Source of the DNA: Actinomycetota bacterium
GTDB taxonomy: Bacteria > Actinomycetota > Acidimicrobiia > Spongiisociales > UBA11373
Reading direction: 5' to 3'
DNA: 64,000 nucleotides
Assembly (NCBI GenBank): GCA_020444505.1
Contig: JAHLKU010000003.1
Location: 21,824 to 85,823, forward strand
Of this stretch, positions 9,448 through 9,915 are shown piece after piece (the stretch's first letter is position 1; each line of letters begins with the position of its first letter). The notes under the pieces were generated by a model. It was not told the origin of the DNA and ran no database searches. It saw only the letters and a list, made by a program, of their open reading frames with translations. Position numbers and translations under genes: made by a program.

Positions 9448-9915
9448 ATGGATCTGAAGGGAAAGCGCATCGTCGCCATCGGCGAGCGCGAGGGCATCAA
9501 CGGCCCCAGCCTGAAGCTGCTCGCCGAGTCGGCGGGTGCGACGGTGGTCTTCAGCGTCACCCAGTGCTTCGTCTGAACGGCTGGTGGAGCCATGGACCTG
9601 GACGACCAGGCGAACGTGAGTCGCCTGGCCGAGGAGTCCGGGACCGACGACATGCTCGTCGTCCTGGGCCAGCCGGATCCCAACAGTGCGGGCCTCTTCG
9701 CAGAGACCGTCACTCGAGGCGATCCGACCTGGGCAGGTCCGTTGGCCGGAGTCCCGTTGGGGCTCCCCGTGTATCACATCCTCGAAGAGGAGATCAAGGA
9801 GTCGATGGACCCCGACCTGTATCAGGAGCACGTGGGCCTGATGGAGTTGTCGGCGGACGTCGACGAGATCGTGAAGTGGGTCAAGTTCTACCGCGAGGGC
9901 GGCGGCGAGGCCTGA
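9448..9915 (+). CDS. grdA: glycine/sarcosine/betaine reductase selenoprotein A (GrdA) with in-frame UGA (Sec) at 9574..9576
   Basis: Strong RBS GAAGGAGG 8 nt upstream of ATG 9448. The N-terminal ORF MDLKGKRIVAIGEREGINGP ... VVFSVTQCFV ends at UGA. It continues in frame as TAGGAMDLDDQ ... [33 protein letters not shown] (track ORF 9592..9915). The CFV-U-TA(A/G)GAMDL motif is the canonical GrdA Sec site. Confidence 0.85.
9579..9591 (+). promoter_or_regulatory. candidate SECIS apical hairpin downstream of grdA UGA (GGCU-GGUGG-AGCC); uncertain
   Basis: Short 4-bp stem with a GGUGG loop starting 2 nt after the UGA. Alternative stems exist at 9597..9610 and 9606..9628. The exact SECIS fold cannot be resolved by eye. 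Confidence 0.25.

Follow-up and report, generated by a model that had tools for sequence, protein, structure and literature searches.

We conclude that nucleotides 9448-9915 of a 64,000-nt stretch of DNA from a high-GC actinobacterium very probably form one gene, grdA, which encodes selenoprotein A of a Grd-type reductase and in which the in-frame UGA at 9574-9576 is read as selenocysteine (Sec). The gene itself is a genuine grdA; its protein family is well known, and its host group and neighbourhood are unusual. The stretch analysed (hereafter the window) comprises positions 21,824-85,823 of the forward strand of contig JAHLKU010000003.1 in assembly GCA_020444505.1. Its GC content is 70-75% (about 72%), and it resembles metagenome-assembled genomes (MAGs) of Acidimicrobiia. 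Homologues were taken from a scan with one genome per species, which gave a set of 80 loci.

The reading frame of grdA begins with 42 sense codons ending in T-Q-C-F-V, meets the TGA at 9574-9576, and continues as TAGGAMDLDDQ... without interruption to a second TGA. The gene is defined by the following features:

9431..9438, plus strand: Shine-Dalgarno sequence of grdA, GAAGGAGG, with a perfect AGGAGG core, 9 nt before ATG 9448.
9448..9915, plus strand: grdA coding sequence, 155 codons including Sec43, stop codon TGA 9913-9915, identified by PF04723, NF040748 and gap-free alignment.
9565..9576, plus strand: redox motif Cys40-Phe-Val-Sec43 (CxxU); TGC 9565-9567 encodes Cys40 and TGA 9574-9576 encodes Sec43.

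A preliminary description of this DNA had proposed a strong Shine-Dalgarno sequence ahead of ATG 9448, and a 42-codon N-terminal open reading frame (ORF) ending in QCFV-TGA and lying in frame with an ORF at 9592..9915. Both proposals agree with the sequence in every particular. GC content at third codon positions (GC3) is 0.93 upstream of the UGA and 0.86 downstream in the same frame, as expected of continuous coding in a GC-rich window. We found no promoter-like or terminator-like site between the end of the preceding gene grdC (stop 9410), grdA and the start of the next gene at 9932.

To identify the protein, we searched profiles with the 155-residue read-through product, in which Cys was written in place of Sec43. 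The product matched Pfam PF04723 (GRDA) with 195 bits over profile positions 1-147 of 147 (cutoff 22 bits), and NCBIfam NF040748, named 'glycine/sarcosine/betaine reductase complex selenoprotein A', with 198 bits (equivalog cutoff 130 bits). The close match to GrdA along its whole length that had been described beforehand is thus borne out. Over 155 residues the product is 48-49% identical to GrdA of the cultured species Ezakiella coagulans and Fenollaria timonensis, and it is 79-92% identical to the copies in Acidimicrobiia MAGs. Failure to align with GrdA homologues across the UGA had been named in advance as the refuting outcome; the alignment is gap-free across Sec43. CFVUT and an 11-residue core are invariant in the full-length GrdA alignment. 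The motif CFV-U-TAGGAMDL, which had been called canonical, needs one small correction: TAGG after Sec is a variant found in this clade, and TAAG or TSAG stands there in clostridial and most other GrdA proteins. When we looked for a solved structure of GrdA, the only matches were chance ones to green fluorescent protein.

The UGA is conserved well beyond this lineage. In 78 of the 80 loci, a TGA occupies the codon homologous to 9574-9576 within the pattern C-x-[VI]-U-T-[AS]-x-G, and these 78 span Actinomycetota, Chloroflexota, Rokubacteria, Deltaproteobacteria and Clostridia. A Cys codon stands at the Sec position in none of the 80. Taken with the GC3 pattern and the end-to-end profile match, this conservation goes well past anything expected by chance. 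This is consistent with the published record, in which the GrdA motif is given as CxxU (PMC9312934) and no Cys homologue of GrdA has been reported (PMC1794560). The nearest loci, at 79-92% identity, are nearly all Acidimicrobiia MAGs from marine, saline, groundwater and sponge samples, and the remoter copies (about 50-58% identity) come from Chloroflexota including SAR202, Rokubacteria, NC10, Deltaproteobacteria and Clostridia. The two exceptions, L036 (about 5990-6390) and L037 (about 5990-6381), are N-terminally degenerate grdA-like copies in sponge-symbiont MAGs of Ca. Spongiisociaceae and Ca. Poriferisocius. Their N-terminal 40 residues are unrelated, the Cys of CxxU is absent, and the Sec position holds an Arg codon in L036 and TGA in L037; these copies may be decaying.

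Recoding in bacteria would call for a Sec insertion sequence (SECIS) in the mRNA downstream of the UGA. The preliminary description had listed three hairpins there and had held that the true SECIS could not be picked by eye. All three are present as described:

9579..9591, plus strand: hairpin A, GGCU-GGUGG-AGCC, -4.6 kcal/mol, 7 nt between UGA and loop; rejected.
9597..9610, plus strand: hairpin B, CCUGG-ACGA-CCAGG, -6.3 kcal/mol, 25 nt between UGA and loop; SECIS candidate 1.
9606..9628, plus strand: hairpin C, CCAGGCGA-ACGUGAG-UCGCCUGG, -13.3 to -14.1 kcal/mol, 37 nt between UGA and loop; SECIS candidate 2.

Inspection indeed does not settle the choice, and SECIS prediction narrows the three to two. 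We compared them with the bacterial SECIS (bSECIS) model of bSECISearch, for which the summarising passage of PMC13188914 gives a loop of 3-9 nt, a stem of 4-16 bp, a G in the first two loop positions, a UGA-loop spacing of 16-37 nt and a stability of -7.5 kcal/mol or better. Hairpin A was discarded: its spacing is too short, its stability is low, only 75% of alignment cells are paired, and its stem is dictated by the Ala-Gly-Gly-Ala codons. The SECIS of grdA is probably hairpin B or hairpin C. The two share five bases, CCAGG, and are therefore mutually exclusive.

Hairpin B is paired in 97.6% of cells across the 35 sequences of this clade, and changes within it are only from G-C to G-U. In the sister clade of Chloroflexota/Rokubacteria type, its place is taken by an 8-bp hairpin with a GGA loop at +18 to +36, in which 4 of 8 pairs show compensatory changes and 95% of cells are paired; 0-2 of 500 shuffles reach the observed measures. 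Hairpin B is the positional counterpart of this covariation-supported sister-clade SECIS. Its loop, however, is A-N-G-A, without the expected G, and its conservation can largely be attributed to the conserved Asp-Leu-Asp/Glu-Asp-Gln codons in a GC-rich genome. Only one of its sites showed a preference for paired codons, a G-ending Leu in 31 of 35 sequences against 19.6 expected (kinship ignored).

Hairpin C is favoured by folding and by codon choice. When the first 13 nt after the UGA were treated as covered by the ribosome, hairpin C formed with a probability of 0.94 in the window and exceeded 0.5 in 22 of the 35 clade sequences, compared with 6 of 35 for hairpin B. Measured against the codon usage of each locus itself and ignoring kinship, the codons that preserve pairing in hairpin C were in excess at four sites: a U-ending Asn/Ser codon (20/31 versus 5.0 expected), Ala GCG (26/32 versus 10.4), Arg CGY (29/32 versus 14.2) and a G-ending Leu codon (26/33 versus 18.4). 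In the window, the first of these is a rare AGT at 9619-9621; T ends only 1% of the window's AAY/AGY codons. The loop of hairpin C carries GU at positions 3-4, and its 37-nt spacing is the upper limit of the model. In L010 and L025 hairpin C is broken, and shifted hairpins lie at about the same place.

We lean slightly towards hairpin C (9606-9628) as the SECIS. The opposite assignment, with hairpin B bound by SelB and hairpin C incidental or serving pausing or mRNA stability, has a substantial chance of being right, if somewhat below even. It is favoured by the position shared with the covarying sister-clade hairpin, by near-complete pairing, by a spacing in the middle of the range, and by the dominance of hairpin B in the clade members that have lost C (L013, L018, L029, L032 and L034). 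It is disfavoured by the low stability of hairpin B, its loop, the explanation of its pairing by amino acid and codon constraints, and its defeat by hairpin C in 22 of 35 ensembles. The mutually exclusive pair also makes a compact test case for the maximum distance between SECIS and UGA in bacteria.

Larger structures in this region were also considered and rejected. The RNAalifold consensus pairs columns 7-11 with 29-33 around hairpin A, and its outer pairs are all invariant coding positions without covariation. A long composite stem around hairpin B (+4..+57) and an extended stem around hairpin C each showed covariation no higher than shuffled controls, and their extensions are poorly conserved. 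A simplified strict SECIS scan passed 17 of 23 sister-clade sequences and the UGA of the window's grdB-like gene. Of the 35 sequences of this clade it passed 1, and of 15 Clostridial-type grdA genes from cultured isolates and gut MAGs it passed none. In view of these counts, failing the scan says little.

The genes around grdA are those of a Grd-type complex and an adjoining catabolic module:

5331..6656, plus strand: grdE/grdG/grdI-like alpha subunit of protein B, the substrate-specific component; PF09338 401 bits, best NCBIfam model GrdG at 305 against a cutoff of 780.
6653..7966, plus strand: grdB/F/H-like selenoprotein B, Sec codon TGA 7700-7702; TIGR01918 465 bits.
7714..7730, plus strand: SECIS hairpin of the grdB-like gene, GCGUUGC-GGU-GCAACGC, within the published bSECIS constraints.
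7971..9410, plus strand: grdC, protein C beta subunit, start GTG 7971 or ATG 7983; 595 bits with the equivalog model NF040746 (cutoff 450).
9932..11395, plus strand: aldehyde dehydrogenase, 16 nt past the grdA stop; Pfam Aldedh 523 bits.
9932-21492, plus strand: conserved downstream module, its order kept in about a dozen Acidimicrobiia MAGs.

The grdB-like gene overlaps the preceding stop (ATGA) and carries its in-frame UGA within VTST-U-GTSTRCG. Its SECIS hairpin has a GGU loop, 7 bp and an 18-nt spacing, is kept in 21 clade sequences, and shows a compensatory swap from U-A to A-U in L026/L028. Against Rfam SECIS_4 (RF01990) it gives a full-length match of 28.3 bits (E 0.0011), below the gathering score of 38.

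The order grdE-like, grdB-like, grdC, grdA is syntenic in about a dozen Acidimicrobiia MAGs, and grdC followed by grdA is universal among the fetched loci outside Clostridia. The aldehyde dehydrogenase is probably in the same operon as grdA. Its best NCBIfam match is betaine-aldehyde dehydrogenase (468 bits, below the cutoff of 669), and its adjacency to grdA recurs in about 18 loci from Acidimicrobiia and Chloroflexota-type MAGs. The downstream module continues with a Zn-dependent dehydrogenase, an FGGY kinase (12511-13824), a DeoC/LsrF-type aldolase, a VOC-family protein, a BMP-type binding protein and an ABC transporter. Elsewhere in the window, two adjacent minus-strand genes at 22345-24728 match the D-component of 2-hydroxyglutaryl-CoA dehydratase (PF06050). 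This family is typical of anaerobic amino-acid fermentation and is therefore unexpected in an Acidimicrobiia-like genome. A very long ORF of 1727 aa with a strong coding signal lies at 58181-63364, also on the minus strand. Between grdC and grdA, the distant loci L038 (5550-5966) and L043 (5633-5965), labelled as Actinomycetes and Chloroflexia MAGs, have a thioredoxin gene (FWGPxCxPC) that is absent in the window's lineage.

With the gene and its surroundings described, we asked whether the internal TGA could mean something other than Sec. One explanation is that the locus makes two products: translation would stop at the UGA to give a 42-residue peptide, and would begin anew at ATG 9592 to give a 107-residue protein. 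Nearly all database entries follow this gene model, and ATG 9592 is closely preceded by a GGUGGAG stretch. However, a gap of only 2-3 nt separates that purine-rich stretch from the ATG, and no Shine-Dalgarno match exceeds 4/6, which leaves no usable site. In the full-length alignment, Chloroflexota, Rokubacteria and other lineages have Leu or Ile in place of the Met, so that no start codon exists there, and a product without Cys40 and Sec43 would have no redox centre. We consider separate products very improbable. Judging from these features and the lack of promoter-like or terminator-like sites from grdC onwards, the 9592 ORF requires neither a start nor a promoter of its own, in keeping with the preliminary description, which had asked for this point to be checked. 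A nonsense mutation that made grdA a pseudogene, or an error in sequencing, is more improbable still, to the point of being negligible. Here TGA is the usual stop, and the products of close relatives stand in public databases only in truncated form, but the same TGA recurs in the 78 loci, which are independent assemblies from several phyla. Both halves of the protein are conserved, coding GC3 is kept, the partner genes are intact, and the truncations in databases follow from gene callers that stop at UGA.

The UGA might instead be read through a reassigned code or by near-cognate suppression, with Trp, Cys or Gly inserted. The failure to see Sec machinery in the available sequence favours this explanation. 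Against it, TGA is the stop codon of 31 of the 39 called genes in the window, grdA included; it is thus an ordinary stop, the code is standard, and recoding of the internal UGA must be local. The GrdA family is moreover without Cys homologues (PMC1794560), and the grdB-like gene supplies a second UGA with a consensus-type SECIS and a sub-threshold SECIS_4 match. Sec machinery is also documented in Mycobacterium, which belongs to the same phylum, Actinomycetota (PMC13449736). We therefore rate this reading as no better than a slim chance, on a par with that of two products.

Several observations weigh against the Sec reading and the reductase built on it. Genes for selA, selB, selD and tRNA-Sec were not found in the 64-kb window or in 56 scanned loci (L001-L056), and the decoding machinery is assumed for this genome. 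Neither hairpin B nor hairpin C meets every published bSECIS constraint: B falls short of the required -7.5 kcal/mol, and a G is missing from loop positions 1-2 of both. No Rfam model matches after the grdA UGA even in a permissive search, and at the gathering threshold none matches anywhere in the window. The codon-choice expectations for the two hairpins leave shared ancestry uncorrected. Among the partner functions, thioredoxin, thioredoxin reductase and sel genes were absent from about 40 window ORFs searched with Pfam. A tblastn search with a GrdD probe taken from L061/L070 found no grdD in the whole window (best E 0.3). No grdD was found either in the 6-kb flanks of any non-Clostridial locus (L001-L056, L058, L062, L064, L065, L067, L071 and L074-L076), whereas grdD adjoins grdC in 14 of the 14 Clostridial loci that reach that far. 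In the clostridial enzyme, grdD is essential.

As to the type of protein B, its substrate-specific models were all below cutoff: GrdB TIGR01917 (413/602), GrdF (475/800), GrdH NF040795 (449/775) and GrdG (305/780), with FarE also below (156 versus 675). In the Sec subunit, the window has U-G-T-S-T-R-C where clostridial proteins have U-G-T-C-T-R-C, so that the Cys of UxxC is absent. In the alpha subunit, G-V-Y-V-Y-G-C-Y-K-N replaces G-N-C-V-S-S-C-D-K-N of clostridial GrdE, and the Asn-Cys pyruvoyl cleavage site is missing from the window protein and its relatives. PMC10838667 describes equivalent differences for FarE/FarB, which are specific for fluoroacetate, and states that betaine reductase GrdI is not a proprotein either. 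By its motifs, the window protein B pair resembles the unprocessed GrdI/FarE class. With neither a pyruvoyl site nor the UxxC Cys, the substrate of the complex is probably not glycine, and a betaine-like or other 2-substituted acetate is more likely.

A working scheme can be proposed for the pathway. Transcribed within an operon of grdE-like, grdB-like, grdC, grdA and aldehyde dehydrogenase genes, grdA would be translated from its own Shine-Dalgarno sequence, and a downstream mRNA hairpin would recruit SelB with Sec-tRNA(Sec) while the ribosome sits on the UGA. By analogy with the clostridial enzyme, Sec43 of GrdA would receive a carboxymethyl group from protein B. Protein C would turn the carboxymethyl-Sec unit into an acetyl unit, after which Sec43 and Cys40 would be joined by a Se-S bond, and a thioredoxin-type reductant would reduce this bond and regenerate GrdA.

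A more detailed proposal joins several further parts, and we offer it tentatively, considering it unlikely that all of them hold together. It posits a distinct, GrdD-less and non-pyruvoyl Grd-type reductase that is widespread in Acidimicrobiia from marine, saline and sponge-associated settings and to which grdC-grdA clusters of Chloroflexota and Rokubacteria are related. The reductase would act on neither glycine nor sarcosine. It would use a betaine-like or other 2-substituted acetate, which the adjacent aldehyde dehydrogenase would produce from a 2-substituted acetaldehyde. The aldehyde in turn would be released from an imported polyol-like or sugar-like compound by the dehydrogenase, FGGY kinase and DeoC-type aldolase. 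In this clade the SECIS of grdA would now be hairpin C, displaced 12-14 nt downstream from an ancestral position that the sister clade still uses.

These results bear on how such genes are annotated. The best 120 database relatives are all fragments, 119 of 102-139 residues and one of 153 (52% identity), and close relatives in public protein collections are almost only fragments of 102-110 residues that start at the Met after the UGA. Many of these are named 'hypothetical protein', and other names include 'glycine reductase' and 'betaine reductase'. Because the fragments arise from gene callers that stop at UGA, the truncated GrdA entries are a systematic annotation error; the correct model is the 155-residue selenoprotein, and the read-through model improves on the one that databases usually give. 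As far as grdA alone is concerned, this analysis is of use mainly for annotation. The protein is a textbook selenoprotein, recognised above cutoff by curated models, in a lineage for which it has apparently received little discussion. Of wider consequence is the conservation of a two-selenoprotein Grd-type reductase in a high-GC actinobacterial lineage of marine, saline and sponge habitats. If its substrate were glycine betaine or a related osmolyte, the complex would suggest that trimethylamine-type products can also be formed by organisms other than the classical anaerobic fermenters. The betaine reductase pathway is usually considered anaerobic (PMC9321204).

GrdA has been characterised in Clostridium sticklandii, C. 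litorale and Eubacterium acidaminophilum. The window protein resembles these clostridial proteins in length (155 aa, about the same), in its CxxU motif with a UGA-encoded Sec, in the invariant 11-residue core, and in the linkage of its gene to the genes of proteins B and C. It differs in its host, a high-GC Acidimicrobiia-like actinobacterium rather than a clostridial amino-acid fermenter, and in gene order, which is grdE-like, grdB-like, grdC, grdA here and grdE-grdA-grdB-grdC-grdD in clostridia. Unlike clostridial glycine reductase, the cluster has no grdD and no trxA/trxB nearby. After Sec, the window has TAGG where clostridial GrdA has TAAG, and the SECIS region is remodelled. In the papers searched, we came upon no specific account of a Grd system from Acidimicrobiia or from sponge symbionts, and the cluster may still have been described. 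Compared with betaine reductase GrdHI and fluoroacetate reductase FarEB, the window proteins score far under the model cutoffs (GrdH 449/775, FarE 156/675), and no OpuD-type betaine transporter lies nearby; a Zn-dependent dehydrogenase, an FGGY kinase, a DeoC-type aldolase and a BMP-type ABC transporter are found instead. They share with GrdI and FarE an alpha subunit without the Asn-Cys site, and with FarB a Sec subunit without the UxxC Cys; the adjacent aldehyde dehydrogenase scores best against betaine-aldehyde dehydrogenase.

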